A stretch of DNA of 64,000 nucleotides from Actinomycetota bacterium (GTDB lineage Bacteria > Actinomycetota > JBBINU01), in assembly GCA_037443725.1 (NCBI GenBank), contig JBBINU010000006.1:73748-137747 (forward strand). Direction: 5' to 3'. Shown here piece by piece: positions 1 to 42,227 of this stretch. The notes beneath the pieces are model-generated. The model worked only from the letters and a program-made list of their open reading frames with translations, did no database searches and was not told the DNA's origin. Position numbers and translations under genes: made by a program. Each line of letters starts with the position of its first letter. Within the stretch, counting starts at the first letter, position 1.

Positions 1-1239
<1,239 letters not shown>

Positions 1240-1243
1240 CCCC

Positions 1244-1555
1244 TCACCACCTGAAAAGATCGGCCTCCTCGAAACTGGCCGTCTCCCTGGTCCTGAACAG
1301 GAGGATGACTATGGCCAGACCCACACCGACCTCGGCGGCGGCCACGGCCACCACGAAGAGGGCGAACACCTGTCCAGCCAGGAGGCTGTCTCGCAGATAC
1401 GCCCAGAAGCTCACCAGGTTCAGGTTCACCGCGTTCAGCATGAGTTCCACTCCCATGAGGACCAGGACCCCGTTTCTCCTCGCCACTACGGCATAGGCCC
1501 CCAGGGCGAACAGGGCAGCCGCGAGCACCAGGGGAAAGTGGAGGGGGAGACTCAC
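1244..1555 (-). CDS. nuoK: NADH-quinone oxidoreductase subunit K
   Basis: GVELMLNAVNLN and AAEVGVGLAI motifs. The GTG start overlaps the nuoJ stop (GTGA). Confidence 0.93.
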   Translation of the reverse strand: MSLPLHFPLVLAAALFALGAYAVVARRNGVLVLMGVELMLNAVNLNLVSFWAYLRDSLLAGQVFALFVVAVAAAEVGVGLAIVILLFRTRETASFEEADLFRW

Positions 1556-2043
1556 TGCTCCCTCCTGGCCAGAAGAATCGCACCGACCAGGGCCGCAAGA
1601 AGGAGAAGGGAGACAAGCTCGAAGGGAAGGACGTACCGGGGGTTGAAGATCCCGAGCCCCGTGCCGGTCAGGGCGGAACCCTCCAGGGATATCCGGGCCC
1701 CGGGGAAGGCCCTGGCAGCGATGAAGGAGAGGAGGAGAAGTAGGACGAGGGAGACGCCTGCCCCGAGCCACCACTCCCCCGTCTCGAGCCTCTGCCTCCC
1801 GATGGGAGCCCGGGTCACCATGAGGCCGAAGAGGATGAGAACGACGATGGCGCCCACGTACACGAGCACCTGAACCCACCCGAGGAAGCCGGCGCCGAGC
1901 AGAAGGTAGAGGGCGGCCACGCCGAGGAGCGCTCCGACCAGCCAGAGGGCGGCCCTGACAACGTTGGTAGCCGTCACCACGAAAAAGGCGGAGACAAGGA
2001 CAGCGGCCCCGAAGAGGAAGAAGAACACCTCGCCGGGGTTCAT
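1552..2043 (-). CDS. nuoJ: NADH-quinone oxidoreductase subunit J
   Basis: [15 protein letters not shown] and [13 protein letters not shown] motifs. ATG at 2043 overlaps the nuoI stop. Confidence 0.92.
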
Positions 2044-2852
2044 TCTCCCCTCCCCTCCTTCTGCTTCCTCATCCACGCGCTCTTCGCCTTGGCCCTGGCG
2101 ACCCTCTCGGGAGTTCCCTTGGCTATTTCCGCCTGGTAGACCTCCTCGTCCATACCGACCTCCCGGTGCTCCCGCGCCCCCTCGGCGGCCTTAGGCTCGC
2201 CGGGCGCTTCCTCCGGTACGGTCCTGACGGGAGGGACGGCCTCCGGCGCTCTTCCCGCTCCCGAGGCGGCCTCCCGAACCCCCGCCTCGTCGGTTGGCCC
2301 AGAAGGTCCCCGACGGGCCGGCTCCTCCGTCCGCGCCGGGCTCCGGGCAGGCCTCGCCCCGGCCTCAAGCTCTTTGGGCTGCTCAGCCCCGTCCTCCAGG
2401 GGGTCGGGAGGAGGGACATAGGCCATCCAACGCCCGAGGGTCTCCTTCTCATGAAGGAGCTGCTTCACCTCGTAGGTGGAGTACTCGAAGTAAGGCGCCC
2501 AGAAGAGGGCGTCAAAGGGGCAGGCCTCCACACACAAACCGCAGTACATGCAGAGGGCAAAGTCGATAGCGAACCTATCCAGGACGTTTCTCGTCCTCGG
2601 CCTCGCCCCGGGTTCCTTTGGCGGGACCACCTCCTTGTGGCTCTCGATGTAGATGCACCAGTCCGGGCAGGCGCGGGCGCAGGCCATGCAGACCGTGCAG
2701 TTCTCCTCCTTAAGAGCGATGACCCCTCGAGAGCGGGCGGGCAGGGACGGCTTCTCGTCGGGATACTCCTGGGTCACCGAGGGACGAAGGAACGTCCTTA
2801 GAGTCACACCCAGCCCTTTGAGCAGCCCCGAACCCGGCACCCGCAGACCCAT
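2040..2852 (-). CDS. nuoI: NADH-quinone oxidoreductase subunit I with long C-terminal extension
   Basis: Two 4Fe-4S motifs ([24 protein letters not shown]), then a Pro/Ala/Glu-rich linker and a terminal charged module. Confidence 0.93.
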
Positions 2853-2860
2853 CCCGCCTC

Positions 2861-3841
2861 CTAGAACAGAAGCTTGAAGGCGGCCGTTCCCATCAGGTTC
2901 GCAAGGGAGAGGGGAACCAGCCAGGCCCAGGCCATCTTCTGGAGCTGGTCCTCACGGATCCTAGGGTAGGTGGCCCGGAACCAGATCATGATGAAGGTGA
3001 GGGCCCCCGCCTTGACGAGAGTCCAGAGGACCCCGGGGAACCCCGGCCCCCGCCACCCACCAAGGAAGAGCACGGCCCCAAGGGCCGCAAGCCCGAACAT
3101 CCCGGCATACTCAGCAAGGAGGAAAAGGACATAGCGCATACCCGTGTACTCGGTGTAGGCGCCGGCGATTATCTCCGAGTCCGCTATGGGCATGTCCAGG
3201 GGAGTTCGCGAGAGCTCAGCCATGGAGGCCATGAGGAAGATGAAGAAGCCGAGCTCCTGGCCGGCAAGGATGAAGGGGAGGCGCTGCGCCTCAACGATTC
3301 CCTCAAGAGAGGCGCTCCCTGCCTGGAGCGCCACGGCCGCCGCCGCCAGGACCAGGGGGAGCTCGTAGGCTATGAGCTGGGCGGCGGACCTCAGGGCACC
3401 TATCAGCGAGAACTTGTTCGCACTCGCCCACCCCGCCATTAGGACCCCCACCACGGAGATGGCAGAGATGGCGAGGGCGTAGAAAAGGGAGACGTCGCTA
3501 GAGAACCCGGCCAGCCCCTTGCCCCAGGGGATCACAGCGTAGAGCATGATGCCGGGGACCACTACCATCACCGGGGCCAGGGAAAAGACCCACTTGTCAG
3601 CGGCCCTTGGAATCACATCCTCCTTCTGGAGGAACTTGAGGCCGTCGGCTATGAGCTGAGCCCAGCCATGGAACCGTCCCGCGTACATGGGGCCGAGCCT
3701 GGCCTGCATGTGAGCGAGGACCTTGTGTTCGGCATATCCGACCACGAGGGTTGCGACCAAGTAGAGGCCGAGGATGGCAATGAGCTTGAGGAGGAGGATC
3801 CCCCAGGCAGACCTGGCCAGGACTACTACCCCCTCCATCAC
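2861..3841 (-). CDS. nuoH: NADH-quinone oxidoreductase subunit H
   Basis: [25 protein letters not shown] and AGAYTEYTG motifs; polytopic membrane protein. Confidence 0.93.
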
Positions 3842-5019
3842 CGGTCCACGTCCCCCACGACGAAGAAGATGCTTCCCATGATGGCCACGAGGTCAGGGAT
3901 GAGGGCCCCTTTAAGAATGGCGGGAAGGATGCTCACGTTGGAGAAGCTCGCCGTGCGCATCTTCAGCCTCCAGGGTTGCTGCCCTCCCCTGGAGACCAGG
4001 TAGTACCCCAGCTGGCCCAGAGGGTTCTCGGTCCGCACGTAAATCTCACCCTCGGGCGCCTTGATGGTCTTGGGCACCCTGGCCCGCACCGGTCCCGACG
4101 GCAGTCCCTCATGAACCTGTTCGATGATGCGGAGGGACTGCCTCACCCTCTCCAGCAGAACCCAGAACCGCTCCCACGCATCGCCCGTCTTACCCACAGG
4201 GACATCGAACTCGAGCTTCTCGTAAACGAGGTAGGGCGAGGTCTTCCTGGCGTCCTCGGGGACCCCCGAGGCCTGGAGGATGGGGCCCGTCACGCCGTAT
4301 TCCTTGGCGAGCTCGGGAGGAATCACCCCTATCCCCCTCGTTCTCGCCTGGAAGATCTCGCTGCCAAGGAGGAGGTCCTCGTAGTCGGCGAGGCGGGAGC
4401 GGACGAGCCGAAGGGCCTGCTCGCTCTTTTTCATGAACCCTTTGGGCAGGTCCTCCTTGAGCCCGCCCACCCGATTGAAGTGGACGTGAAGCCTTCCGCC
4501 CGTGGCCATCTCAAAGAACTCCTGGATTACCTCGCGCTCGCGGAAGGCGTAGAAGATGGGGGTCATGGCTCCCAGCTCCAGCCCGAAGGAGCCGATGAAA
4601 ACAAGGTGATTGAGGACCCGGTTCCACTCGGCCAGGAGGACCCGGAGCCACTGGGCCCTCTCCGGCACCTCCAGCCCCATGAGGCGCTCCACGGCCATGG
4701 CCACGCCGATCTCGTTGCAGAAGGCGGAGAGCCAGTCGTGCCGGTTCACCAGGACGATGATCTGGTGGTAGTCACGGACCTCAGCCAGCTTCTCGAAACC
4801 CCGGTGCATGTACCCGATGACGGGCTCGGCCTCGACTATCCTCTCCCCATCCAGGGTTATCACCACCCGGAGCACCCCGTGGGTGGAGGGGTGCTGGGGC
4901 CCGATGTTCAGCACCATCTCCTCGGTGGCGAGGTCGCCCCGGAGGACCACCTCAACGCCCTCTCCGGGGCCACCCGGCAGCCTCTGGATGGTCCCCTCTG
5001 TCACCTCCCTGCCCCTCAC
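3838..5019 (-). CDS. nuoD: NADH-quinone oxidoreductase subunit D
   Basis: [24 protein letters not shown] and C-terminal GDVDR. Confidence 0.95.
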
Positions 5020-5519
5020 TCGTGGCCTCCAGGCTCCTTCGCACCGGGCCAGGGCTTGGCCTCCCTGGCCATAAGCACGAAGTCCTTCCTCAGGGGATGC
5101 CCCTCGAACTCCTCAGGGAGGAGGAGCTTGGCGAGGTTCGGGTGTCCCTCGAAGGTTATCCCGAACATTTCCGCCGTCTCCCTCTCGTGCCAGTTGGCCC
5201 CCGCCCACACGGGGGTGAGGGATGGAGCCCTCGGATCCTCCCTAGGCAGCAGGGCCTTCAGGCGCAACCTGTGGCCGAGGCTCAAGGAGGCGATCTCCAC
5301 CACCAGCTCGAAACCCGCCTCCTCCCTGTCAACGGCGGTGGCGAAGTCAAAGAAGTCGAAAGCGAGGTCGGGGGTCTCCTTGAGAAAAGTGGCGACCTCC
5401 CGGAGGGCACCGGGGAGGACCCTCACCACCGCCTCCCCGAAGTTCTCCTCCCATCCCAGGACAGCCTCGCCGAAGCGGTCCTGGAGCCTCGCGGCCAGCT
5501 CGTCAGGCGCGAGTCCCAC
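5016..5519 (-). CDS. nuoC: NADH-quinone oxidoreductase subunit C
   Basis: [20 protein letters not shown] and GHPLRKDF motifs. Confidence 0.94.
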
Positions 5520-5991
5520 TGTACCTCTTGGCTAGAGATTCCGTCTCGATCTTCTTCTGAAGCTTGAGGATGCCCTCGAGGAGCGCCTCGGGTCTCGGAG
5601 GGCATCCGGGGACATAGACATCCACGGGAATGATCTGGTCCACTCCCTTGGTCACCGAGTACGAGTCCCAGTACGGGCCACCGCAGTTGGCGCAGGAGCC
5701 GAAGGATATGACGTACTTGGGCTCGGGTATCTGGTCATACACACGCTTAAGAGCCGGGGCCATCTTGTCCGTAAGGGTTCCGGCCACGATGAGGAAGTCC
5801 GCCTGGCGGGGGCCGTGGGCAAAGGGAATCACCCCCAGCCTTATGAAGTCGTGCCTGGAGGTGGAGGTGGCTATGAGCTCGATGGCGCAGCAGGCGAGCC
5901 CGAAGTTCATGACCCAGAGGGAGTACTTCCGGCCCCAGTTCAGGAGGAACCTGATGGGCTGTGGAAAGTCCAACCTTTCCACTAGACCCAC
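5503..5991 (-). CDS. nuoB: NADH-quinone oxidoreductase subunit B
   Basis: [12 protein letters not shown] and [10 protein letters not shown] (cluster N2 ligands). GTG start at 5991 overlaps the nuoA end. Confidence 0.94.
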
Positions 5992-6347
5992 CTGAGCACC
6001 CCCTTCCGCCAGGCGTAGAGGATGCCGAGGGCGAGGACCAGAACAAAGATGCCCATTGACACCAACCCGTACACGCCAAGCCTGTCGTACACCACGGCCC
6101 AGGGGAAGATGAATATGCTCTCCACATCGAAGGCGACGAAGAGGAAGGCATAGAGATAGTAGCGGACGTGGGTTTGGCTCCACCCAGTCCCCACGGGGTC
6201 CATGCCGCACTCGTAGGTGGTGAGCTTCATTGCATAAGGGCGGGAGGGCCGGAGAAGGCGGTTCAGCAGGAGAGCGGCGGCCACGAAACCCACGGCCGCT
6301 ACAGAGAAGGCGAGGATAGTTCCGTTGGTCTCAAAATACCCGGGCAC
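5982..6347 (-). CDS. nuoA: NADH-quinone oxidoreductase subunit A
   Basis: YECG, FDVES and [10 protein letters not shown] motifs. Confidence 0.93.
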
Positions 6348-7487: not shown

Positions 7488-8948
7488 TCACATGCCCCCC
7501 GCCGCAAAAAGCGAGGAGGCGGCCGCGATATCCATGAGGCCCCCGGGCATAACCCCCAAGGCCAGGACAAAGAAGGCTGCGAGCCCCAGGGCGACGGCGA
7601 AAAGGCCCGGAACCCCGGGCACCTCAGCCTCCCCCTCTTCGAGGAACAGGGCGACCACCACCCGTATGTAAGCGAAAGCCGCCACAGCACTGGCCAGAAC
7701 GGCCCCGAGCACCAGGGGGGTCTGCCCAGCCGAGAGGGCAGCGCCGAAGACGTAGAACTTGGCCATGAACCCTGACGTTGGAGGTATCCCCGCCAGGGAG
7801 AGGAGGAAGACTGCGAAGGCCCCCCCGAGGACCGGGTTCCTCCTCCCCAGCCCCGCCAGGGAGCGCAGGTCCCACCGCTCCTCCGGGCGGAGGCCAGCCA
7901 AGGCCAGAACACCGAAGGCGCCCACCACGGCCAGGATGTAGACGGAGAGGTAGAAGAGGACCCCCGAGACCCCGAGCCTGGTCCCACCCGACACGCCCAC
8001 AAGAAGGAAACCCGCATGGGCCACGGAGGAGTAGGCCAGCATCCTCTTCACATCGGTCTGGGTGAGGGCGAGGAAGGCGCCCCCGAACATGCTGGCCCAG
8101 GCGGCGACCTCGGCCGCGAGCCTCCAATCCCAGCGGGCAGAGGGAAAGGCCACGTAAAGCAGGCGGAGGAGAGCCGCGAAGGCAGCGACCTTGGTGCCGG
8201 AGGCCATGAACGCGGTGACCGGCGTGGGTGCCCCCTGGTAGACGTCGGGGAGCCAGAACTGGAAGGGTACGGCCCCCACCTTAAAGGCCAGCCCACCCGC
8301 GAGAAGGGCGAGCCCCGCCAGGAGAACCCGCGGGTCCAGCGCTCCCCAGGCTGCCTCGCCCAGCCGGTGCAGGGCGGTGGCGCCGGTCGCCCCGTAGGCC
8401 AAAGCCGCCCCGTACAGGAAGATGGCCGAGCTGAAGGCCCCGAGCACTAGGTACTTAAGCCCCGCCTCCAGGGAGCTGGCCCGGCCCGTCGCGAAGGCAG
8501 CCAGTGCATACAGGCAAAGGGAAAGAACCTCCAGGGAGAGGAAGATGCTGACGAGATCGCTGGCACCGGCAAGGAGAACCATCCCGGCGGTCGCAAAGAG
8601 AACCAGGGCGAAGTACTCGGGCCTGACCAACCCCCTGGCCCTCAAGTAGGCGGGGGCGAAAAGAAGCGAGAGGCCTGCTGCGACCACCACCACCATCCCG
8701 GCAAATCGCCCCAGGGGGTCGAGGGCGAGGGCCCCCGAAAGGACGAGCCCGGTCACTCCCGCCCGCCTCCCGAGGAAGAAACCGGCAGCTCCCAAACCGA
8801 GGAGGGAGAGGAGGAGTTGACTCTCCGGCCTTCTCGACCCGGACCCCGCCAGCAGAACCACCACGCCCGCGGCAACCAGGCTGAGGGCGGGAGCCAGGGC
8901 CATCCAGGCCTCGGGCGTCATGAGGGTTCCGGCAAGCCCCGGCATCAC
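7488..8948 (-). CDS. nuoN: NADH-quinone oxidoreductase subunit N
   Basis: EAGLKYLVLG, FKVGAVPFQFWLPDVYQGAPTP and KRMLAYSSVAH. Confidence 0.94.
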   Translation of the reverse strand: MMPGLAGTLMTPEAWMALAPALSLVAAGVVVLLAGSGSRRPESQLLLSLLGLGAAGFFLGRRAGVTGLVLSGALALDPLGRFAGMVVVVAAGLSLLFAPAYLRARGLVRPEYFALVLFATAGMVLLAGASDLVSIFLSLEVLSLCLYALAAFATGRASSLEAGLKYLVLGAFSSAIFLYGAALAYGATGATALHRLGEAAWGALDPRVLLAGLALLAGGLAFKVGAVPFQFWLPDVYQGAPTPVTAFMASGTKVAAFAALLRLLYVAFPSARWDWRLAAEVAAWASMFGGAFLALTQTDVKRMLAYSSVAHAGFLLVGVSGGTRLGVSGVLFYLSVYILAVVGAFGVLALAGLRPEERWDLRSLAGLGRRNPVLGGAFAVFLLSLAGIPPTSGFMAKFYVFGAALSAGQTPLVLGAVLASAVAAFAYIRVVVALFLEEGEAEVPGVPGLFAVALGLAAFFVLALGVMPGGLMDIAAASSLFAAGGM

Positions 8949-10492
8949 TCACCCGCCTCCAGGCCAAGCCCGATCCCTCCCGCCGGCCCCGCCTCCACCC
9001 GAGCGAGACCGACCCGCTCCCGCACTGTCTCCAGGGAGGGACCGGCTCTGTCCAGCACGAGCCTGGGGAAGAACCCGAGGATCAAGAGGAGAATAAGGAG
9101 AGGGACAACCACCACCCTCTCCCTCAGGCTCGCGTCAGCCAGACCCGCGTCCTCGGGGTGCCTCAGGGGGCCGTGGAACACCCTCTCGTACGCCCAGAGC
9201 ATGTAGACAGCAGCGAGGAGGACCCCGAAGGCAGCCCCCACCGCGAGGGCGGGTTCCACCCGGTAGGTCCCGAGGATCACCAGGACCTCCCCCACAAAGT
9301 TGGCAAGGCCCGGAAGACCGAGAGAGGCGAGGGCGGCCATGAGGAAGAAGCCGGAGAGGACAGGGAGGGCTCCCGCCACACCACCGTAATCGGCGATGAG
9401 CCGGGTGTGCTTTCTCTCGTAAAGCATCCCCACCAGGAAGAAGAGGGTTCCCGTGGCCAGCCCGTGAGCGATGAGGACGAAGTAGGCGCCCTCCAGGGAG
9501 AGAGCAGTGGCGAGGGCCACCCCCAGCACCGAGTAACCCATGTGGGCCACGGAGGAGTAGGCCACCAGGCGCTTGAGGTCCTGCTGCATGGCCGAGACGG
9601 CCCCCCCGTAAAGGATTCCCACGAGCCCCAGAAGGGCCAGGATGGGCCTGAAGGTTCGGGCGGCCTCGGGGAAGAGGGTGAGGTTGAACCGGAGGAGGCC
9701 GTAGACCCCCATCTTCAGCAGGATTCCGGCGAGGAGCACGCTCCCGGCCGTGGGTGCCTCCGTGTGGGCGTCGGGCAGCCAGGTGTGGAGCGGGAAGATG
9801 GGCACCTTTATGGCGAAGGCGGCGAGGAAGGCGGCGAAGAGCCAGAGTTGGGCCGCGCGGGCGGGAGTGAAGGAGAGAAGCTCTCGCAGGTCGAAGGTCC
9901 CGACTCCGGTGGCCTTTAGATGCAGGAAGTACAGGGCGATGATGCCCACCAGCATGATGACTCCTCCGAGCAGCGTGTACAGAAAGAACTTGACCGCGGC
10001 GTAGATCCTCCTTTCGTACCCCCAGGCCCCTATCAGGAAGTACATGGGGAAAAGCATCCCCTCCCAGAAGACGTAAAAGAGGAGGAGGTCGAGGGCGAGA
10101 AAGACCCCGAGCATCCCGGCCTCAAGCACCAGCATCACGAGGCAGAAGCCCTTGGCGTTCTTGATCCCCCATGACCCGAGGATGCCGAGGGGGACGAGGA
10201 TAGCGGTGAGGACCACCAGGGGCAAGGAGATGCCGTCAACCCCAACCACGTACCGGGCACCCCAGAGCCCCACCCAGCGGGCCTCCTCCACCATCTGAAA
10301 ACCCTGCCCGGGCCGGAACCGGGCCCAGAGAGTCAGGGCCAGAACCAGCTCCACCAGGGAGATGAAAAGGCTCGCCGCCTTCGCTTTCCGGCCCCCTCTC
10401 TCCTCCTCCGCGGGGAGAACCGCGACTATGAGGGCCCCCAGGAGGGGGAGGAAGATGAGGAGGGATAGGAGCCCAAGCCTCAAAGGGACCAC
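8945..10492 (-). CDS. nuoM: NADH-quinone oxidoreductase subunit M
   Basis: FYVFWE, KVPIFPLHTWLPDAHTEAPTAGS and KRLVAYSSVAH. Confidence 0.94.
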   Translation of the reverse strand: MVPLRLGLLSLLIFLPLLGALIVAVLPAEEERGGRKAKAASLFISLVELVLALTLWARFRPGQGFQMVEEARWVGLWGARYVVGVDGISLPLVVLTAILVPLGILGSWGIKNAKGFCLVMLVLEAGMLGVFLALDLLLFYVFWEGMLFPMYFLIGAWGYERRIYAAVKFFLYTLLGGVIMLVGIIALYFLHLKATGVGTFDLRELLSFTPARAAQLWLFAAFLAAFAIKVPIFPLHTWLPDAHTEAPTAGSVLLAGILLKMGVYGLLRFNLTLFPEAARTFRPILALLGLVGILYGGAVSAMQQDLKRLVAYSSVAHMGYSVLGVALATALSLEGAYFVLIAHGLATGTLFFLVGMLYERKHTRLIADYGGVAGALPVLSGFFLMAALASLGLPGLANFVGEVLVILGTYRVEPALAVGAAFGVLLAAVYMLWAYERVFHGPLRHPEDAGLADASLRERVVVVPLLILLLILGFFPRLVLDRAGPSLETVRERVGLARVEAGPAGGIGLGLEAGE

Positions 10493-12342
10493 CCCCGGGA
10501 GAGGAAGAGGGCGAGAAGGCCAAGGAACCCCGCGGCGAGACCTAGAGCGTAGTTCCGCAGGGAGCCGGTCTGGACCCTCCTCACCAACCTGGATACGCTC
10601 ACGGCGGCGGATCCAACCCCATTCACCGCACCGTCCACCACCCTCAGGTCGAAGCCGAAGGCAAGGACGGCCGCGGCCAGCTTGGAGGGAAGCACGACCA
10701 GGTTACCGTAGAGCTCGTCGAAGTAGAAGCGGGAAGCCGGAGCCCGGTAAAGGAGTCCGAGCCTCTCCCGCAGGCCGACCCAGTCGACACGGCCCGAGGC
10801 GTAGACCACCCAGGCTAGGAAGATCCCCACCACCGCCGCCACCACCGGCAGGATGGCCGGCAAGCCGATCTCCTCGGCGCGGGCCTCCCCGAGGAGAGGG
10901 GCGAGAAAGCCCTGAAGCAGGCCCCTCCCGCCCCAGCCGAGGGCTCCCCCCACCACCGCTCCGGCGCCGAGCAGAGAGAGGGGAACAACCATTACGGGAG
11001 GGGACTCATGGGGATGACCGCTTCCCCTCGGCCTCCCGAGGAAGGTGAGGAAGAAGAGCCGGGAGGAGTAGTACGCGGTGACGAGCGCCGTGGCCACTCC
11101 TACGGCCCAGAGGAACCCCCTACCCTCGGCCAGGGCCGAGGCAAGGATCGCGTCCTTGCTCACGAAGCCCGAGAAAGGAGGCACGCCTGCCAGGGCCAGC
11201 CATCCCGCTCCGAAGGCGAGGGCGGTCAGCCTCATCCGCGGGAGCACCCCCCCCAGCCGGTCCAGGTCGGTCTCCCCGCCGGTGCCGTGCATAACGCTCC
11301 CCACCCCGAGAAAGAGGGTGGCCTTGAAGAGAGCGTGGGTCACCAGGTGAAAGATGGCCTGGGAGTAGGCCCCCACCCCCGCCCCTAGGAACATGTACCC
11401 GAGCTGGCTCACGGTGGAATAGGCCAGGACCCTCTTCATGTCCCTCTGAGCACACGCCTGGACCGCAGCGAAGATGGCGGTCCAGGCTCCCACCGCCGCC
11501 ACCACCGGCAGGGCCGCCAGGGCTCGCTCGAAGATCGGATGGGCCCTCACCACCAGATACACTCCCGCCGTCACCATGGTGGCCGCGTGGATCAGGGCGG
11601 AGACCGGCGTCGGACCCTCCATGGCGTCGGGAAGCCAGACGTGTAGCGGGAACTGAGCGGACTTCCCAACCGCCCCCGCAAAAAGGAGAAAGGCGATGAG
11701 GCTCGCCTGGAAGGGACTGAGCTCCCGCGCCCCCTCCAGCACCTCGCCGTAGGACAGGCTCCCGAGGAAAGCGAAGATGGCTGCGACTCCGAGGGCGAAC
11801 CCAACGTCCCCAAGGCGCGTCACGACGAAGGCTTTCTTGGCTGCGGCTGCGGCCGCCGGCCGCTCGAACCAGAACCCGATAAGGAGGTAGGAGCAGAGTC
11901 CCACGCCCTCCCAGCCGAGGTAGAGGAGGAGGAAGTTGTCCGCGAGGACCAAAGTGAGCATGGCCGCCACGAAGAGGTTGAGGAAGGCGAAGTAGCGAGG
12001 GTAGCGAGGATCGCCGTGCATGTACCCGATGGAGTAGACGTGGATGAGGAACCCCACCACGGAGACCGTGGCCGCCATTACGGCCGAGAGCTGGTCCAGA
12101 CGGAGGGCGAGATCCACCCGGAAGTCCCCGGCCACCACCCATGAGGCGAGCCTCTCCAGGGCGGTGCCGCGGGATGGGAACCAGATCAGCAGGAGAAGAG
12201 AGACGGCGGCCGAGAGGCCCACCGCAAGGGAGGCGAGATGCCCCGCGTATCTCCTCGGCCTACCCCCGCTCGCCAGCAGCCAGAGGGCGACAGCCAGAGG
12301 AAAGCCAGGCACGAGCCAGAGGGGAAGGGTTCCGCCTCTCAC
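10480..12342 (-). CDS. nuoL: NADH-quinone oxidoreductase subunit L
   Basis: WEGVGLCSYLLIGFW and KSAQFPLHVWLPDAMEGPTPVSALIHAATMV. Start placed at the GTG just after the nuoK stop. Confidence 0.94.
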   Translation of the reverse strand: MRGGTLPLWLVPGFPLAVALWLLASGGRPRRYAGHLASLAVGLSAAVSLLLLIWFPSRGTALERLASWVVAGDFRVDLALRLDQLSAVMAATVSVVGFLIHVYSIGYMHGDPRYPRYFAFLNLFVAAMLTLVLADNFLLLYLGWEGVGLCSYLLIGFWFERPAAAAAAKKAFVVTRLGDVGFALGVAAIFAFLGSLSYGEVLEGARELSPFQASLIAFLLFAGAVGKSAQFPLHVWLPDAMEGPTPVSALIHAATMVTAGVYLVVRAHPIFERALAALPVVAAVGAWTAIFAAVQACAQRDMKRVLAYSTVSQLGYMFLGAGVGAYSQAIFHLVTHALFKATLFLGVGSVMHGTGGETDLDRLGGVLPRMRLTALAFGAGWLALAGVPPFSGFVSKDAILASALAEGRGFLWAVGVATALVTAYYSSRLFFLTFLGRPRGSGHPHESPPVMVVPLSLLGAGAVVGGALGWGGRGLLQGFLAPLLGEARAEEIGLPAILPVVAAVVGIFLAWVVYASGRVDWVGLRERLGLLYRAPASRFYFDELYGNLVVLPSKLAAAVLAFGFDLRVVDGAVNGVGSAAVSVSRLVRRVQTGSLRNYALGLAAGFLGLLALFLSRGWSL

Positions 12343-12343
12343 C

Positions 12344-12649
12344 TCACCTCCTGAGAAGCCTGAGCTCGTCGGCGCTGGCTGTGCCGAGGTGGCGGACGAC
12401 GGCCACAATAAGAGCCAGCCCGACTACCACTTCGGCGGCGGCCACAACCATGGAGAAAAGGGCAACAGCCTGGCCCTCAAGGCTCCCCAGGTACCTGGAG
12501 AAGGCAACGAAGGCCAGGTTGGCCGAGTTCAGCATCACCTCCACCCCCATGAACATGAGGATGGCGTTCCTCCTGAGGAGCACAGTCGCCGCACCCAGGG
12601 CCATGAGGAGGCCGGAGAGGAGAAGGTAGTGGAAGGGGCCGGGCGTCAC
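12344..12649 (-). CDS. nuoK: NADH-quinone oxidoreductase subunit K
   Basis: [11 protein letters not shown] and AAEVVVGLA. Confidence 0.94.
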
Positions 12650-13131
12650 CCTCCCCTCCTCTTCCCTGACAAGGACAGGGCAGCCACAGCGGCGGCAAGG
12701 AATACCACGGAGGTCGCCTCGAAGGGTAGCAGGTAGGTGGAGAAGATGAGGGAACCTAGCTCCCTCACGGAGCCAGCGGCTCCCTCCGGGAAGACCTGCC
12801 CGCCAAGCCCGAGGACCGCAAGACCCAGACCAACCGCGAGCAGCAACAGGACCCCCGCGGCCAGCGGTCTTTGAGCTTTCAAGGTCTCCAGGAAGGGCTC
12901 GGGCCTGTCGGTCCCGATCGCCATGATGACGAAGAGGAAAAGGACCACCACGGCCCCCGCGTACACGATGATCTGGACCAGAGCGAGCAGCTCCGCACCG
13001 AGGACGAGGTACAGGAGGGCGAGAACCCCAAGGTTCGCGGCGAAAGCCATGGCGGCCCTCACGGGGTGCCTCGAGACCAGGAGGGCCAGAGCCGAACCCA
13101 GAGCCAGGGGGGCGAGGAACCAGAAGATCAC
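12646..13131 (-). CDS. nuoJ: NADH-quinone oxidoreductase subunit J
   Basis: [18 protein letters not shown] and YLLPFE. Confidence 0.93.
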
Positions 13132-13132
13132 C

Positions 13133-13756
13133 CTAGCTCACCTCCTGCCCCGACCCCTCATGAGCCTCGGCACCCTCCGAGGTGCTTCCCCCCGCCTGAA
13201 GAACCTCCACCCCGCCGGCAGCGGCCACAGGCAACCCCACAGGGACTGCCTGGAACCCCCTAACGTAGGAGCGGTAGTACTCGTAGTAATCACCGGCAGG
13301 ACCCTCATCCCTCCGTGGCACGGGCGGCAGCCCGTCGGGGAGCGGCACCAGGAGCATCTCCTTGGTGTAGATGGCGTCCTCTCGGGTGGCCACAGATAGC
13401 CTGGTCTCGGCCGTCATGGTGAGGGCCCTGGTGGGGCAGGCCTCCACACAGAGGCCGCAGAAAATGCACCGGAGGTAGTTAATCTCGTATCTCGTCGCAT
13501 ACCTCTCCCCCGGCGAGTACCTCGCCTCGGGCGTGTTCTCCCCCGCCTCCACGAATATGGCGTCCGCCGGGCACACCCAGGCGCAGAGCTCGCAGCCGAC
13601 GCACTTCTCAAGCCCGTCCGGCCAGCGGTTCAGGACGTGTCTGCCATGAACCCTGGCGGGCAGGGGCCTCCTCTTCTCGGGATACTCCACCGTAACCCTG
13701 GGCCTGAAGATGTGCCTCAGGGTGACCCCAAGCCCCCGAACCAACTCCCCCAGCAC
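13133..13756 (-). CDS. nuoI: NADH-quinone oxidoreductase subunit I
   Basis: [12 protein letters not shown] and [12 protein letters not shown]. Lacks the C-terminal module of the other nuoI. Confidence 0.94.
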
Positions 13757-13757
13757 C

Positions 13758-14864
13758 CTAGCCTCCCTCCCCCGTCCTCCTCGCCCTCGTGAAGAGAGGG
13801 GAGAGAAGCCAGATCAGGGCCAGAACCACGAGCCCAACCAATCCCGCCCTGAAGAGCAGGACCCTCGGGATGGGAAGGGCGACCAGAGCCGAGCTCAGGA
13901 GGAGCCACCCCATGGAGAAGGGGAGGAGAATCTTCCACCCGATGCGCATGAGCTGGTCATAGCGGAACCGCGGAAGACTCGCCCTCAGCCATATGAAGAC
14001 GAAGACGAAGAGAACCACCTTGGCCAGGAACCAGAAGGGACCCCAGACGGGTCTCGCCACCGGCAGCATCGGCCCCCTCCAGCCGCCGAAGAAAAGAGTC
14101 ACCCCTACCGCGGAGGCCGAGAGGGCGTGTAGATATTCGGCTAGGTAAAAGAGCATGAAGGGAGCCCCCGAGTACTCCGTGTGGTACCCGGCTACCAGCT
14201 CGCTCTCGGCCTCCGGCAGATCGAAGGGGGGACGGCTCGCCTCGGCCAGGGAAGCCACGAGGAAGATGAGGAAGGCGGGGAGCTGGGGAAGGAAGAACCA
14301 GATCCCCGCCTGGGCCTCCACTATCTCCGAGACCCGGAGGGAACCGGCATACACGAGGACCGAGGCGAGGGCCAGGGTCATGGCCAGCTCGTAGGAGATG
14401 AGCTGAGCCCCGGCCCGGAGGGAGCCGAGGAGGGGGTAGTTGCTGCCCGAGGCCCACCCCGCGAGGATGACACCGTAAATGGCCACAGACCCGACAGCTA
14501 CCACGAGGAGGACCCCGACGGGGGGGTCGGCAAGCTGCAGGCTCACCTCCCTTCCGACGACCCTCACGGGGGGTCCAAAGGGAATGACGGAAAAGGAAAG
14601 AAACGCCGGGACGGCAGCGAGGAGGGGGGCGAGATAGTAAAGGAGCCGGTCCGTTTCCTTCGGGACCACCACCTCCTTGGTCATGAGCTTAAGCCCATCG
14701 GCAAGGGTCTGAAGTATTCCCCAGGGCCCGGCCCGGTTCGGGCCTACCCTGGACTGCATGTCCGCCAGGATCTTCCTCTCCGCCCAGACGGCCAGAACCA
14801 GCGCGACCAGAAGGAAGGCGAGGAGGACGACGGCTTTCACCAGAGCCAGAAGCCACTCAAGCAC
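13758..14864 (-). CDS. nuoH: NADH-quinone oxidoreductase subunit H
   Basis: [15 protein letters not shown] and [23 protein letters not shown] start at 14864. Confidence 0.94.
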
Positions 14865-17118
14865 GTCCGGCCTCCCCCCTCCCGACCTCCACCTCCCACC
14901 CCGACTCCGCCACGGCAGGCAGACCCGGGACGCCCGCCGGCAGGTAGATGACCCCCGGGGCAACGGCGGCGGAAGCGCGCCAGGGTAGAAGGGCTTCCCC
15001 CGCCTCCGTTCTCACCCTCGCCGGCATCCCCTCCTCTAGCCCGAGGGCAGCCGCGGTGTCGGGGGAGACCTCCACGACAGCGCGGGCCGCAAGAGCCTCC
15101 AGAGGGCCCGATCCTGTGAGCGCCCTTCCGGCGAGAAGGGGCCTCGCCACAAAGGCCTCCAACCCCCGCCTCCCGCCCCCCGCACCGCCTGCCCCCGCCA
15201 GGGAAACCCGAGGGGCCTGAGCCGAGACGCCCTGTAGCTCCTCCTCCCACGCCTCCAGCCCCGTGGGTAGGCTCATCCCGGCCAGCTCAGCGAGGTAGGA
15301 GAGGATCTCATAGTCGGGAAGGCAAAGGCCGGGGGGCTCGCGGAGCGCGGGCAGGGGCCTTCTCACGCCGTCCCATCCGGTGATGGTGCCCTTCCGCTCG
15401 GCGTACCCGGCGGCGGGGAGAACCACGTCGGCCAGGCTCAGAACCTCGGGAGGGACGAGTATGTCCTGGACCACCACGAACCCGGCTCCCTCCAGGGCCT
15501 CCCTCCATCCGGGCCAGCGCCTTGGGTCCTCCCCTACTATCCAGAGCAGCCCGAGGTCACCCCGGGAGGCGGCGTCCAGCACCTCCCTCCTGGCAAGCCC
15601 CACCTCCCCGGACCCCCTCGGGCCTGGAAGGAGCCCGGGGTGGAGGCCAGCCCTTATGGCCCCCCTGAGATTCCCTCTCCTCGGGGCGAGAGCAATCTTC
15701 GCCCCCACCCCGCCGGCCAACTCCAGAGCAGCCTCGGCCGCGCCCCTCCAGGAAAGGGCCTCCTCCCCCACAAGAACCACGTCTCCCGGACCGAGCTCAC
15801 CGCGAAGGCGCCCGAGCTCCTCCCCAACCCCAGAGGGGGGCGCACCCAGGAACCGGGAGGGGAGATAGGCCCCGGAGGTGAACCGCGGACCTACCGCCAT
15901 CACCACAAGCCCCCTCTTCCGCCAGGCCTGCCTCAGTCGGAGAAAGAGAATGGGTAGCTCTTCCCTGGGGTCGAGCCCGACCAAGAGCACCCTCTCGGCC
16001 CCGTCCAGATCGGCGTAGCCAACCTCCCCGAAGTAGAGGGGGAGGAGGCAGGAGGGGTCCGACATTCCCACCCCGGCGTCCAGGTTCCCCACCCCGACCA
16101 GCTCACGGAAGACCCGCGAGAGAGCGAGGGCGTCCTGATCGGCCAGGTGCGCACCGCCAAGGGCGGCGGCCGGGACCGGATACTTACCTCCCTTCACCTC
16201 AAGAGCCCTCTCGGCCACGGCCTCCAGGGCCTCCTCCCAGCCCACGGCCACCAGCTCCCCCTCCTTCCTCACCATGGGCTCGACGACCCGGGAGGGATGG
16301 TCGAGGAAGAAGTGGGCATACCGGCCCCTGTCGCAGATCCAGGCCAAGTTGGTGCTGGGGTCCTCCTCCGCCAGATGCCTCACGATCCTTCCCGCCCGCG
16401 CATCCACCCTCACCCTGCACCCCGAAGCGCAGAGAGGGCAGACCCCCGTGGCGGAACTCAGATCGAAGGGGCGAGCCCGGAACCGGTAGGTGGTGGAGGT
16501 GAGGGCACCCACCGGGCAGATCTGCACCACGTTCCCGGAGAAGGGTGGGCCGATCTCGACCCCGGGAGCGATGCTCACCTGCTGTCTCGCCCCCCGTTCT
16601 GTGAAGACTAGGTCTGGCTCCCCAGCCACCTCAGCGGTGAACCTCACGCAGCGGGCACACTGCACGCACCTCTCCCTGTCGAGCAGAATGAGGGGGGAGA
16701 TCCGGAGCGGCTTCGGTAGAAACCGCCTCCTCGGCTCCGCGTACCTGCTCCCGCCGGGTCCGTAGGCGAGGGTCTGGTCCTGGAGGGGGCACTCGCCTCC
16801 CCTATCGCAGTAGGGGCAGTCCAGCGGGTGGTTGGTGAGGAGGAACTCTATGGCTGCTTCCTGAGCGGCCCTCGCCATCGGGCTCGAGGTGTGGACCACC
16901 ATTCCTTCAGCCACGGGGGTTGTGCAGGAGGTGACCGGTCTCCTCTGGCCCTCTATCTCCACCATGCATGTCCTGCAGGCCCCCATGGGCTCCAAGTAGG
17001 GATGGTCGCAGAACCGAGGGATGTAGATGCCAAGCCGCTCGGCGGCCCTAATCACCAGGGTCCCCGCAGGGACCACCACTTCGCGGCCGTCTATGGTGAG
17101 CCGGACCTCCTGGCTCAA
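14857..17118 (-). CDS. nuoG: NADH-quinone oxidoreductase subunit G
   Basis: IPRFCDH...GACRTC...C, HPLDCPYCDRGGEC, CVQCARC...C and CPLCASGC...C (N7-type). TTG start overlaps the nuoF stop. Confidence 0.94.
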   Translation of the reverse strand: MSQEVRLTIDGREVVVPAGTLVIRAAERLGIYIPRFCDHPYLEPMGACRTCMVEIEGQRRPVTSCTTPVAEGMVVHTSSPMARAAQEAAIEFLLTNHPLDCPYCDRGGECPLQDQTLAYGPGGSRYAEPRRRFLPKPLRISPLILLDRERCVQCARCVRFTAEVAGEPDLVFTERGARQQVSIAPGVEIGPPFSGNVVQICPVGALTSTTYRFRARPFDLSSATGVCPLCASGCRVRVDARAGRIVRHLAEEDPSTNLAWICDRGRYAHFFLDHPSRVVEPMVRKEGELVAVGWEEALEAVAERALEVKGGKYPVPAAALGGAHLADQDALALSRVFRELVGVGNLDAGVGMSDPSCLLPLYFGEVGYADLDGAERVLLVGLDPREELPILFLRLRQAWRKRGLVVMAVGPRFTSGAYLPSRFLGAPPSGVGEELGRLRGELGPGDVVLVGEEALSWRGAAEAALELAGGVGAKIALAPRRGNLRGAIRAGLHPGLLPGPRGSGEVGLARREVLDAASRGDLGLLWIVGEDPRRWPGWREALEGAGFVVVQDILVPPEVLSLADVVLPAAGYAERKGTITGWDGVRRPLPALREPPGLCLPDYEILSYLAELAGMSLPTGLEAWEEELQGVSAQAPRVSLAGAGGAGGGRRGLEAFVARPLLAGRALTGSGPLEALAARAVVEVSPDTAAALGLEEGMPARVRTEAGEALLPWRASAAVAPGVIYLPAGVPGLPAVAESGWEVEVGRGEAGRA

Positions 17119-18395
17119 GCCCTCCTCCCCGTCCCAACCCTCAAGGGGCAACCGCCCAGGGCCACATGCTCCTCGAACTCCTCCCTGAAATGGCGGAGGC
17201 TGGAGACCACGGGGGAGACCGCCCCATCCCCAAAGGCGCAGAAGCAGCGCCCGAACATGCCCGCCGTGATGGACTCGAGAAGCGGCAGGTCCTCCTTCCT
17301 GCCCTCCCCCTCTTCCAGCCGCCTGAAGATCTGGGCCATCCAGGGGTTTCCCTCCCTGCACGGAGTGCACTTTCCGCAGCTCTCGTGGACGTAGAACTCG
17401 ACCCACCTCCTAACCGCCCCCACCACGCAGGTGGCATCGGAGAGGACGATCATGGCCCCCGTGCCCAGCATGGAGCCGGCAGCAGCCACTGACTCGAAGT
17501 CCATGGGCGTGTCGACCAGGGAGGCGGGCAGCAGGGGCGTGGAGCTCCCCCCGGGAGTGAAGGCCTTTAGCCTCCTTCCACCCAGAACCCCGCCGGCGCA
17601 CTCCTCGATGAGGGTTCGGGCGGGGGTTCCCATGGGGGCCTCGTAATTCCCGGGTCTCTCCACCTCACCCGAGACGCAAAAGATCTTGGGACCCGGACTC
17701 TTGGGCGGACCGATGGACGCGTACCAGTCCGGTCCGCGTACCGCGATGAAGTGGAGATTGGCCAGGGTCTCCACGTTCTGGACCACCGTGGGCTGGTTGT
17801 ACAGGCCGTGGGTGGCAGGGAAGGGAGGACGCATCCTCGGTTGGCCACGCCTCCCCTCCAGGGACTCGAGGAGAGCCGTCTCCTCCCCGCAGACGTAGGC
17901 CCCGGCCCCCCGGTGGACCACCACCTCGAGGGAGAAATCGGTACCCATCACCCGCGGCCCTAGATACCCTGCCTCCCTAGCCTCCTCCAGCGCCCGCTGG
18001 AGAACCCAGCCCGGCTCGAGGAACTCGCCCCTCACGTAGACAAAGGCCTGCCTTGCCTCTATGGCGTACGCAGCGATGGCTATCCCCTCCACCACCAGAT
18101 GAGGATCCCTCTCGACCAGCTCCCTGTCCTTGAAGGTTCCAGGCTCCCCTTCATCGAAATTGACGACGAGATAGTGGGGGTAGCGGTCCCTCGGAACGAA
18201 GCCCCACTTGACCCCGGCCGGAAAGCCTGCCCCGCCCCGGCCGCGGAGCCCCGAGGCCTTCACCATCTCCACCACCTGGGAAGGGGTCATTTCCCGAACC
18301 ACCTTCTCCAGGCCCCGGTAACCGCCGGTCTCGACGTACCGGTCGAGACCGACGGGGGAAGGCTCTCCCCAGCGCGCCGTGAGAATCCTCTCCAA
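17115..18395 (-). CDS. nuoF: NADH-quinone oxidoreductase subunit F
   Basis: GRGGAGFP, DEGEPGTFKD, GAGAYVCGEETAL and ESCGKCTPCREG. Confidence 0.95.
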   Translation of the reverse strand: MERILTARWGEPSPVGLDRYVETGGYRGLEKVVREMTPSQVVEMVKASGLRGRGGAGFPAGVKWGFVPRDRYPHYLVVNFDEGEPGTFKDRELVERDPHLVVEGIAIAAYAIEARQAFVYVRGEFLEPGWVLQRALEEAREAGYLGPRVMGTDFSLEVVVHRGAGAYVCGEETALLESLEGRRGQPRMRPPFPATHGLYNQPTVVQNVETLANLHFIAVRGPDWYASIGPPKSPGPKIFCVSGEVERPGNYEAPMGTPARTLIEECAGGVLGGRRLKAFTPGGSSTPLLPASLVDTPMDFESVAAAGSMLGTGAMIVLSDATCVVGAVRRWVEFYVHESCGKCTPCREGNPWMAQIFRRLEEGEGRKEDLPLLESITAGMFGRCFCAFGDGAVSPVVSSLRHFREEFEEHVALGGCPLRVGTGRRA

Positions 18396-18396
18396 C

Positions 18397-19002
18397 CTAC
18401 CTCCCCACAACCCCCCCAGAGGGACCCCGGGAAGAGGTGAGCGCGCCATCCCGGAAACCGGCCAGGGCTAGATAGGTCTCCTTCAAGGGCATGGGGCGCC
18501 TCCCGTCGGCCCTGGGCGGGGGGTCCCCTCGGAGAAGATCCCTTGCCAGAGCCCTGGCTTGCTGCGGAGTGAGTCTAGGATAGGTGAAGTAGTTCACCTG
18601 GACGAGGGGTGCCTGGTCGCAGGCGCCGAGGCACTCCACGGTCTCCAGGGTGACCTCTCCCCCCGCCGTCGTCCCCTCCTCGACCCCCAGCTCGTCCCTG
18701 ATGGCCGCGAGGACCTCTCCCGCCCCCCTGAGAAGACAGCCAACATTGGTGCAGAGGGAGAGAATGAACCTGCCCGTCGGCCTCCTCTTCACCATGGTGT
18801 AAAAGCTGGCAGCCGCCAGGACCTCAGCCGGGCTCACTCCAAGCAGGCCCGCCACCTCCTTAAGGCCCCTCTCCGAGACGTACCCCTCCTCGGCCATGGC
18901 GAGGAAGAGGAGGGGGAGGAGAGCCGAGCGGGGCTCGGGGTAGCGGGCCACCACTCCTCTGGCTCTCTCCCGGAACTCCTCTCCGAAAGGCCCAGCGCTC
19001 AC
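18397..19002 (-). CDS. nuoE: NADH-quinone oxidoreductase subunit E
   Basis: CTNVGC and ECLGAC 2Fe-2S ligands. Confidence 0.93.
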
Positions 19003-20279
19003 CGGTCCACCCCTCCCATCACGGGATCCAGACTGGCAGCAGCCGCCACCAGGTCGGCCACAAGCCCTCCCCTGGCAACCACAGGCAGAGCCTGGAGATT
19101 GACGAAGCTCGGTTCCCTCACCCTAACCCTGTAGGGTCTCGTCCCGCCGTCCGAGACCACCCGGTACCCGAGGAGGCCCCTGGGGGACTCTACGGCCACA
19201 AACACCTCTCCGGCCGGGACATGGAAACCCTCCGTCACGAGCTTGAAGTGGTGAATGAGGGCTTCCATGCTCTCCGCCATGATCTTCCTAAGGTACAGGG
19301 GGTCATTTCCGAGGCCGTCGGGTCCCACGGCCAGCCGCGCCGGCCAGGCTATTTTCGGGTCCTCCACCATGATGGGCCCCGGCTCGAGCCTCTCAAGAGC
19401 CTGAGCAACGATGCGCAGGGACTCCCGCATCTCTCGCATCCTCACCCAGTACCTGTCATAGACGTCGCCCACTTCCCCCACTGGGATCTCGAACTGGTAG
19501 GACTCAAGCCCCGAGTAGGGCCGCACCTTCCGCACGTCGAACGGGACCCCTGAAGCCCTCAGGTTCGGCCCGGTAACCCCGAGGGAGAGAGCCTCCTCGG
19601 CAGGGAGGATCCCCACCCCCTTCGTCCTCTCGAGCCATATGGGGTTCTCCGAGAGCATCGCCTCGTACTCGTCGAAGCGGGTGGGGAAGGTCTTGAGGAT
19701 GGCCCGTACCTTCTCCTCCGCTTCGGGGGGGAGGTCCGCAGCAAGTCCCCCGGGTCGGAAGTAGGCGTGGTTCATCCTCAGCCCCGAGGCCATCTCAAAG
19801 ACGTCAAGGATGTCCTCCCTCTCCCTGAACCCGTAGAGCATCAGGGACATCCCCATGGACCCCAGCTCACCGGCGGTGGTCGCAAGCCAGACCAGATGGC
19901 TCGAGATGCGGTTCAGTTCGGTGAGGAGGACCCGGAGAACCTGGGCCCTGGGCGGGGGCTCGATGCCGAGGAGCCTCTCCACGGCCAGGCAGTAGGCGAG
20001 CTCGTTGAAGAGGGGAGCAAGGTAGTCCATCCTGGTGACGAAGGTGACCGCCTGGACCCAGTTCCTGTACTCGCAGTTCTTCTCGATCCCCGTATGCAGG
20101 TACCCGATGACAGGCTCCGCGGAGACCACCCTCTCCCCGTCCAGCTCGAGGACGATCCTGAGCACCCCATGGGTGGAAGGGTGCTGAGGACCCATGTTCA
20201 CCACAAGGTGCCCTTCCTTGAATTCCCCGAGAACCTCGGCGTCACCGCCGTGGAGGTAGACCTCCCTCCCTTCCTCCAC
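18999..20279 (-). CDS. nuoD: NADH-quinone oxidoreductase subunit D
   Basis: [18 protein letters not shown] and GGVDR. Confidence 0.95.
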
Positions 20280-21644: not shown

Positions 21645-21739
21645 GCTCCCTCCTGCCGAGTTCCAGAGCCAAGGGCTCCGACATCCAAGCCGGACCGCCC
21701 GCAAACCGCCACGGTAGCCGGCCCGGGCATGCGGGGCAA

Positions 21740-40568: not shown

Positions 40569-40571
40569 CCG

Positions 40572-41360: not shown

Positions 41361-41380
41361 TACCGGGCCGGGAGGCGAGC

Positions 41381-42205: not shown

Positions 42206-42227
42206 GAGGGACTGGAGGGAGGAGACC

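Follow-up and report, generated by a model that had tools for sequence, protein, structure and literature searches.

A two-helix mini-domain carried by NuoI of NuoEFG-less complex I and by subunit IV of a Rieske/cytochrome b complex in Actinomycetota: a candidate docking tag

We analysed a 64,000-nucleotide stretch of the genome of an Actinomycetota bacterium (assembly GCA_037443725.1, contig JBBINU010000006.1, positions 73,748 to 137,747), hereafter the window, in which two respiratory proteins carry the same small module. One is NuoI from an operon of "headless" complex I, that is complex I devoid of NuoE, NuoF and NuoG, with the module at its C-terminus; the other is subunit IV of a Rieske/cytochrome b complex, with the module at its N-terminus. 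The module is a discrete, unnamed mini-domain of about 35-40 residues, and its carriers are almost all respiratory or electron-transport proteins. Judging from the sequences, the reading that we favour, with a probability of about 0.4, is that it would serve as a tethered docking tag taking its carriers to one common binding site; we infer both that the module binds and what it might bind. The two carrier genes of the window are laid out as follows.

2040-2852, minus strand: open reading frame (ORF) of NuoI, 270 residues, module at the C-terminus, shared core at residues 234-263
2058-2183, minus strand: module copy 1, C-terminus of NuoI, residues 224-265, seen by BLASTP, profile match and as an AlphaFold2 hairpin
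2157-2411, minus strand: NuoI linker, residues 148-232, of low complexity and probably disordered (A 19%, P 18%, E 18%, G 11% of 85 residues)
2412-2852, minus strand: NuoI core with two 4Fe-4S cluster motifs, Pfam Fer4 and Fer4_7 above their cut-offs
41381-42205, plus strand: ORF of subunit IV, 274 residues, module at the N-terminus, shared core at residues 13-42
41393-41512, plus strand: module copy 2, N-terminus of subunit IV, residues 5-44, seen in the BLASTP pair and by profile match
41513-41755, plus strand: subunit IV linker, residues 45-125, of low complexity (A 21%, P 21%, E 10%, G 10% of 81 residues)
41756-42205, plus strand: membrane core of subunit IV, PetD-like, equivalent to the C-terminal part of cytochrome b, Pfam Cytochrom_B_C (PF00032)

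An earlier, sequence-only reading of the window had reported a 30-residue module common to the NuoI C-terminus and the subunit IV N-terminus with 24 of 30 residues identical. The coordinates and sequences are borne out: the cores lie at 2064-2153 (NuoI) and 41417-41506 (subunit IV), and a BLASTP comparison of the two proteins gives 29 identities over 42 positions with an E-value of 2e-12. The 30 residues proved, however, to be the shared core of a larger unit of about 35-40 residues, found in one to three tandem copies on NuoI. In the whole genome of origin (1.72 Mb, 24 contigs, 95.6% complete), a profile search retrieved these two copies only (E 6.6e-30 for NuoI and 9.2e-26 for subunit IV); the next matches, at E 0.1 and 1.9, are unrelated. 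Both extensions look like genuine coding sequence, since the stop codon of nuoI and the start codon of nuoJ overlap in the sequence ATGA and a GGGAGG motif lies 6-11 nucleotides upstream of the subunit IV ATG. Each is joined to its core via a linker as long and as rich in Pro, Ala, Glu and Gly as had been described, these four residues accounting for 62-65% over 81-85 positions.

The likeness of the two copies might be thought to stem from a recent DNA duplication or gene conversion, or from a chance match between low-complexity stretches, in a region of high GC content where Ala, Lys and Arg abound. The E-value of the pair and the recurrence of the module on NuoI and subunit IV in five other families speak against this explanation, which is refuted by the codons and by the 13 other genomes that carry the module, and we retain for it only a vanishing probability. 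In the window pair, codons differ at 10 of the 25 identical residues of a 32-codon comparison (nucleotide identity 0.76), so that the earlier claim of conservation at the protein level without fresh DNA duplication stands. Across genomes, the share of identical residues encoded by differing codons ranges from 4/22 to 20/26, with 12/23 in genome G024 and 20/26 in genome G032, where the nucleotide identity is 0.64. Because identical residues so often differ in codon, recent DNA conversion is ruled out as the source of the likeness.

From the module alignment, AlphaFold2 predicts a hairpin made of a helix at positions 9-17, a four-residue turn and a helix at positions 22-37, with a mean predicted local distance difference test score (pLDDT) of 88.6. 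In the model of full-length NuoI, confidence is highest in the module (pLDDT 84-93) and falls to a pLDDT of 32-44 in the linker. The module opens with a short extended lead-in, continues with the acidic helix and the turn Gly-x-(Ser/Pro)-Glu-Arg, and closes with the basic helix, which is rich in Ala; the consensus of 23 modules reads xxxxxxIDQETYDRLIAAGKSERxARAKAKxAxVRKxK, in which D8, G19, R23, A25 and A29 are invariant and A17, E22, R26 and K30 nearly so. The mean net charge amounts to -2.8 on the helix-1 side, +5.8 on the helix-2 side and about +3 for the whole module; the two-helix organization with an acidic and a basic half, previously guessed from the letters, thus agrees with the predicted hairpin. 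In this model R23, R26 and K30, spaced i, i+3 and i+7, would line up as one basic ridge on helix 2, with A25 and A29 turned toward helix 1. The ridge is a candidate binding face, and we count it in favour of a docking tag. Two families, f2 and f14, have a variant whose first helix is longer. The flexible linkers of the module span 40-110 residues, are rich in Ala, Pro and Glu, and differ in length between NuoI orthologues.

In many internal copies, a short hydrophobic/acidic stretch containing a His (for example V-H-V-E or I-H-V-E) leads into the module; the N-terminal copies of subunit IV begin instead with M-(A/S)-(E/D)-E-(V/I)-Q. This lead-in may be a short strand belonging to the domain.

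The distribution of the module was explored with profiles, a shared-word homologue search with residues 224-270 having returned the window's own protein alone. A profile built from the two window sequences matched 66 representatives among 1.84 billion representative proteins (E<=1e-3). With a profile of 27 sequences, at least 3396 proteins matched among 8000 candidates scored from a set of 5.8 billion; the best 120 of these matches are all NuoI-type proteins of 212-536 residues, and the names in the records include Nitriliruptor alkaliphilus, Nitriliruptor sp., Egicoccus sp. and Nitriliruptoraceae. Applied to 185,579 species genomes, a Nitriliruptoria-type pattern yielded 78 loci, nearly all titled as Nitriliruptoria (Nitriliruptoraceae, Egicoccus, Egibacteraceae, Euzebyaceae and Salsipaludibacter albus AS10), the remainder being unclassified Actinomycetota, "uncultured bacterium" records and one metagenome-assembled genome of Acidimicrobiales.

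Comparison genomes were 40 Actinomycetota, hence of the same phylum as the source, two of those in family f2 being unpublished. The module occurs in 13 of the 40 (14 of 41 with the source genome), distributed over families f2 (3/3), f6 (3/3), f7 (2/2), f10 (3/3) and f14 (2/2), and its conservation in the NuoI and subunit IV orthologues of further lineages, which the sequence-only reading had anticipated, is thus observed. The two carriers named at the time both hold, and the set is wider: it also includes NuoC, tails of cupredoxins, small membrane proteins, a ferredoxin and a flavoprotein-like family. Among 103 module-bearing frames at loci L001-L100, the carriers are:

NuoI, one to three copies, C-terminal: 55 of 103 frames
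Subunit IV, a single N-terminal copy: 16 of 103 frames
NuoC, in a C-terminal extension: 14 of 103 frames
P0055-like protein: 1 of 103 frames
Unassigned fragments: 17 of 103 frames

The same count for the 66 representatives of the 1.84-billion set gives:

NuoI-type: 11 of 66 representatives
Subunit IV: 5 of 66 representatives
NuoC: 3 of 66 representatives
Flavoprotein-like family, with a sub-threshold PNPOx_N or DUF6941 match: 4 of 66 representatives
Membrane-anchored cupredoxins: 2 of 66 representatives
Ferredoxin with two module copies (P0019): 1 of 66 representatives
Membrane proteins without a family: 3 of 66 representatives
Unassigned, mostly short fragments: 37 of 66 representatives, among which P0047 has no module according to the better profile

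As predicted from sequence, the module would always lie on the cytoplasmic side. The cupredoxins are telling in this respect: P0058 and P0061 have a C-terminal module, a third (L150, in G032) starts with the module, followed by a membrane helix and then the copper domain, and in both arrangements the module and the copper domain sit on opposite sides of the membrane helix, the copper domain being extracellular. A module across the membrane from the copper domain cannot serve the electron transfer of that domain, which points to localisation or assembly. In family f14, a small protein (genomes G013 and G028) consists of a signal peptide, one membrane helix and the module at its end, and matches no Pfam family. 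The only complete NuoI of this family (G013, 167 residues) has no module; its subunit IV carries the variant module, in addition to the small membrane protein. The genes of this small protein (L151 in G013 and L152 in G028) directly follow an apparent tRNA gene, recognized as such by the same translated string upstream in both genomes.

How the copies relate to one another was examined in a maximum-likelihood tree of 27 modules over 38 columns. Six lineage labels placed on this tree require 5 changes, which is the minimum, against a mean of 16.5 after shuffling, and 0 of 200 shuffles came that low; a two-state carrier label requires 6 changes. The NuoI and subunit IV copies of one family cluster together and split only inside the family. 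With an identity of 0.69-0.88, the NuoI and subunit IV copies of one genome are closer to each other than either is to its best counterpart on the same carrier in another family; this holds for 7 of 9 genomes, the exceptions being G005 and G039. The variant with a longer first helix is common to NuoI, subunit IV and the cupredoxin of G032. Copies within a lineage hence evolve in concert at the protein level. They would either be held alike by selection or have been copied between genes early in each lineage and conserved since; whether by selection or by early copying and conservation, the copies of one cell would have to fit the same thing.

This concerted evolution bears on the idea that the module is a membrane-surface anchor, a basic hairpin that anionic lipid head groups would attract electrostatically, keeping soluble proteins close to the membrane and fixing the flexible tails of membrane proteins to it. 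Lipid binding leaves the lineage-matched variants unexplained, and most carriers are membrane-bound already, even if the soluble ones (the ferredoxin and the flavoprotein-like family) would gain membrane proximity. The net positive charge and the exposed Trp, Tyr or Phe frequently found late in helix 2 are what such an anchor would call for, but this position is Ala, Ser, Gly or Val in most subunit IV copies, helix 2 combines a low hydrophobic moment (0.20 and 0.41) with a negative mean hydrophobicity, and the AlphaFold2 hairpin buries its few hydrophobic residues. We consider the anchor quite improbable.

The genomic context of the two window carriers is given by the following features.

1-6347, minus strand: NuoEFG-less complex I operon, nuoA-B-C-D-H-I-J followed by ORFs read as nuoK and nuoL, extending past the window start
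13133-13756, minus strand: second NuoI, from the 14-subunit operon, without the module, TIGR01971 139.3 bits, above the cut-off
40221-40568, plus strand: 2[4Fe-4S] ferredoxin-like protein, termed FdUp, encoded directly upstream of cytochrome b6, Pfam Fer4 families, NuoI model at E 4.2e-11
40572-41360, plus strand: cytochrome b6-type four-helix cytochrome b, Pfam Cytochrome_B 148 bits
42054-42938, plus strand: Rieske iron-sulfur protein, Pfam Rieske 38.4 bits
43009-43857, plus strand: dihaem cytochrome c, Pfam Cytochrom_C (two stretches) and Cytochrome_CBB3

Within the headless operon, NuoD (3838-5019) is directly followed by NuoH (2861-3841), and the module-bearing nuoI lies between nuoH and nuoJ, an order retained at related loci. 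NuoE, NuoF and NuoG are encoded only in the second operon, whose NuoI (translation of 13133-13756) has no module, just as the earlier reading had it. By our count, NuoD is directly followed by NuoH at 55 loci, at none of which NuoE, NuoF or NuoG is matched, and FdUp, cytochrome b6 and subunit IV follow one another at 13 loci, succeeded by the Rieske protein and cytochrome c where the locus is long enough; the other subunit IV loci end at a contig boundary. In this sample of loci, the module thus marks NuoEFG-less complex I and one Rieske/b6 operon with its own NuoI-like 2[4Fe-4S] protein. FdUp holds the same position in every sufficiently long operon examined, whether or not the module is present, and therefore does not track the module. 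Neither does any feature of its sequence in an 18-sequence alignment, where the signal is ordinary phylogenetic signal only. The suggestion that the module recruits the ferredoxin encoded at 40221 consequently finds no support in this constancy of its gene.

The operon context is among the arguments for the main rival of the docking tag, a rival that is unlikely in our estimate. According to this rival, the basic helix binds a small acidic ferredoxin or flavodoxin, and the tethered modules "fly-cast" this carrier to the 4Fe-4S entry points NuoI, in headless complex I, and FdUp, on the cytoplasmic side of the b6 complex, both enzymes being ferredoxin:menaquinone oxidoreductases fed from one pool. 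Such a carrier-capture antenna would account for the restriction of the module, as far as complex I is concerned, to NuoEFG-less operons, for the constant vicinity of subunit IV to a NuoI-like 2[4Fe-4S] protein, and for the mean charge of +5.8 and the conserved R-x-x-R-x-x-x-K ridge of helix 2; one to three copies on NuoI plus one on NuoC are what an antenna would need. It also has a precedent in the accessible text of PMC13249358, where, citing Schuller et al. 2019, the flexible Lys-rich tail of NdhS is proposed to deliver ferredoxin by fly-casting to the NdhI subunit of cyanobacterial NDH-1. As described there, the two systems have in common a flexible basic element in an EFG-less complex I, close to NdhI/NuoI, with a proposed delivery of the donor to the first Fe-S cluster. 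They differ in that NdhS forms an SH3-like subunit of its own, whose short Lys-rich tail is unrepeated and absent from the b6 complex; the tail, again as far as that text goes, is no folded hairpin and is not found on NuoI or NuoC, unlike the module. Three observations sit badly with an antenna. The redox domains of the cupredoxin carriers, as well as the small membrane proteins, cannot use a cytoplasmic carrier; a ferredoxin (P0019) itself has two copies of the module; and generic electrostatic capture requires neither lineage-matched copies nor a matched change in the length of helix 1.

The tethered docking tag is favoured because of the cytoplasmic topology, the tandem amplification, the long linkers and the presence of at least two carrier genes in 13 of the 14 positive genomes. 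All copies in one cell would fit one site, provided either by each other through homotypic pairing or by a common hub protein, and we divide the weight of this reading about evenly between self-pairing and a hub. Long linkers and one to three tandem copies would make the association multivalent and long in reach, and it would keep complexes and carriers together on the cytoplasmic face of the membrane. A complex prediction pairing the NuoI and subunit IV modules scored 0.04 against a mark of 0.32, which neither supports nor contradicts this proposal.

Several points weigh against the docking tag. The tree is weakly resolved, and an independent duplication in the ancestor of each lineage would give the same clustering as co-evolution. 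The net charge of about +3 disfavours simple self-association. The occurrence of the module on a soluble ferredoxin and on the flavoprotein-like family fits a tag and fits other models equally. Genome G020 has one carrier only, in an assembly that is 93% complete and in which the headless nuo operon was not found. Finally, families f8, f17 and f25 have the same FdUp-cytochrome b6-subunit IV-Rieske-cytochrome c operon and a headless-type NuoI without the module, from which it follows that the module is an accessory, essential to neither complex.

These module-free operons, together with the different tails found at the same positions in other lineages, would also suit a structural or regulatory appendage acting without a partner, such as a folded cap that shields a disordered tail or sets its size, a stability or degradation signal, or a handle for an assembly chaperone. 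Against this, the module is amplified to as many as three tandem copies, has spread to at least six carrier types unrelated to one another, keeps its surface residues conserved and evolves in concert, all of which points to a specific interaction; we regard the appendage as improbable.

A more committed and rather speculative form of docking, which we hold as doubtful, is that the module is a self-recognising "address tag" of the actinobacterial electron-transport chain, assembling a dynamic respirasome. Copies on complex I (NuoI and NuoC), the Rieske/b6 complex, the cupredoxin carrier and soluble donors would pair at the cytoplasmic face, flexible tethers would replace rigid membrane contacts, and each lineage would use its own matched version of the tag.

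The lineages without the module offer further observations on the same termini. In family f20, NuoI is of the headless type, has an acidic tail and lacks the module; the family yielded no subunit IV orthologue. In f25 (L108, G031) and f17 (L112, G016), subunit IV starts with another short motif, E-I-P-E-x-L-x-x-R-x-x-E-A-x-A-K-A, and continues into a long linker that is acidic or rich in Ala. On subunit IV, a basic N-terminal helix rich in Ala may predate the complete module. The headless-type NuoI of f8 (L104 in G007; also G022 and G037) has another C-terminal extension, in frames of 309-580 residues, with a conserved-looking tail unrelated to the module.

For the electron input of NuoEFG-less complex I outside phototrophs and archaea, the module provides a direct experimental handle; partial complex I operons are thought to rely on other donors, according to the available portion of PMC4453560. 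If the partner of the module is a ferredoxin or a dehydrogenase, the missing input module of NuoEFG-less complex I would be identified; if modules bind each other, a new way of building respiratory supercomplexes would emerge. In either case the analysis defines a domain family of thousands of members that has no Pfam or NCBIfam model, and cultured organisms bearing the module exist, namely Nitriliruptor alkaliphilus, Egicoccus and Salsipaludibacter albus.

That the module corresponds to no named domain, as first suspected, holds against the resources searched. No Pfam or NCBIfam model covers it in NuoI or subunit IV of the window. A search of Protein Data Bank (PDB) sequences with the 23-sequence profile gave a best E-value of 1, hence no solved structure holding the module, and Foldseek with the hairpin model found nothing in the PDB at E<=0.001, the top rows (E 3.8-10) being generic helix pairs. 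In the ESM Atlas, residues 224-270 retrieved one unnamed Actinomycetota cluster at 0.77, under the level at which matches carry meaning. The searchable literature, which leaves subscription papers and supplements out of reach, holds no description of the module, of an extended actinobacterial NuoI or of the motif string.

One named domain of similar general appearance is SHOCT (PF09851). In the accessible part of its description (PMC3581485), SHOCT has about 30 residues in two amphipathic helices with a conserved Gly between them, and is mostly terminal on many unrelated carriers; its authors proposed oligomerisation, binding or localisation, and their own test gave oligomerisation no support (PMC3581485, same part). 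Our module resembles it in size, in two-helix topology and in the Gly (helices 9-17 and 22-37; Gly19 invariant), and differs in its conserved positions, its charge pattern and its restriction to respiratory proteins. The two window proteins (P0001 and P0002) have no SHOCT match at E<=10, and P0005, P0006 and P0173 reach 14.1-16.4 bits against a cut-off of 27, NuoI of Nitriliruptoria scoring 14-16 bits. Among the SHOCT matches listed in 41 genomes, none falls at the module site of NuoI or subunit IV, and an hhalign comparison of 23 modules with 23 SHOCT domains of the same phylum returned a probability of 2.1% over 12 columns, out of register.

Another small docking domain is the peripheral subunit-binding domain (PSBD, Pfam E3_binding) of the E2 component of 2-oxoacid dehydrogenases, a basic, mainly two-helix domain of about 35 residues that docks other proteins. 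It is flanked by flexible Ala/Pro-rich linkers in a multi-enzyme redox system whose adjacent domains occur in one to three tandem copies. The analogy with a small basic two-helix domain on Ala/Pro-rich linkers in a redox system is suggestive of a comparable role. The carriers of the module differ, however, in being membrane respiratory complexes, and the same domain sits on several proteins of one cell; E3_binding has no match at E<=10 in P0001, P0002, P0005, P0006, P0083 and P0173. The C-terminus of RnfC/RsxC, a cytoplasmic Fe-S subunit of a membrane redox complex, has repeated short, basic, Ala/Lys/Arg-rich helical units separated by linkers. The resemblance is one of general description and may or may not reflect homology; no RnfC-like protein occurs among the 66 representative module matches.

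Precomputed annotations label the NuoI tails of P0005, P0083 and about 20 further listed proteins as terminase GpA endonuclease (GpA_nuclease, PF20454). Only a piece of 35-45 residues is concerned, corresponding to profile positions 228-275 of 294. Summed over repeats, the scores are 23.8-26.4 bits for a cut-off of 22.5, P0006 reaches 14.4 bits, and the window proteins have no match. A tblastn search with a module against 50,697 phage records gave no match. We take the label to be a partial or spurious match, likely to mislead automatic annotation.

The remaining observations concern the window operons themselves. In the headless operon, six subunits (NuoA, B, C, D, H and J) are identified by Pfam matches. 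NuoK and NuoL are named solely from their position and from reading the ORFs; the putative nuoL is cut by the window edge, beyond which any nuoM and nuoN would lie. The module-bearing NuoI scores 99.2 bits over residues 13-139 with the NuoI model TIGR01971, whose curated cut-off is 113.05. The second operon, complete with 14 genes and including those for NuoE, NuoF and NuoG, spans 7488-21704, and the EFG-less one (1-6347) lies nearly back to back with it, both on the minus strand, in a 1.7-Mb genome.

Subunit IV reaches 38.8 bits with PF00032 over residues 172-255 (cut-off 20.7) and 13.3 bits with TIGR01156, the equivalog model for cyanobacterial and plastid PetD, which has a cut-off of 127. 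By its sequence, it is a PetD-like protein from a Rieske/cytochrome b lineage other than that of cyanobacterial and plastid PetD. The true start of the Rieske protein is probably downstream of 42054, as the ORF overlaps that of subunit IV. The operon FdUp-cytochrome b6-subunit IV-Rieske-dihaem cytochrome c (40221-43857) occurs in at least 10 family-level groups of Actinomycetota, with or without the module, and the match of FdUp to the NuoI model (E 4.2e-11) suggests a Rieske/b6 complex having a cytoplasmic Fe-S subunit. Elsewhere in the same genome, a second subunit IV-like frame (G000:C16:30332-32004) shows 45% identity to residues 49-273 with one in-frame TGA and adjoins a NuoI-like Fe-S match within a 642-residue open frame; this locus may encode another b-type complex, one that lacks the module, or represent a broken copy. 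The b6 protein of the window has a Cys in an F-C-L-G-G context close to its N-terminus, a candidate for the position at which b6-type cytochromes attach haem c_i.

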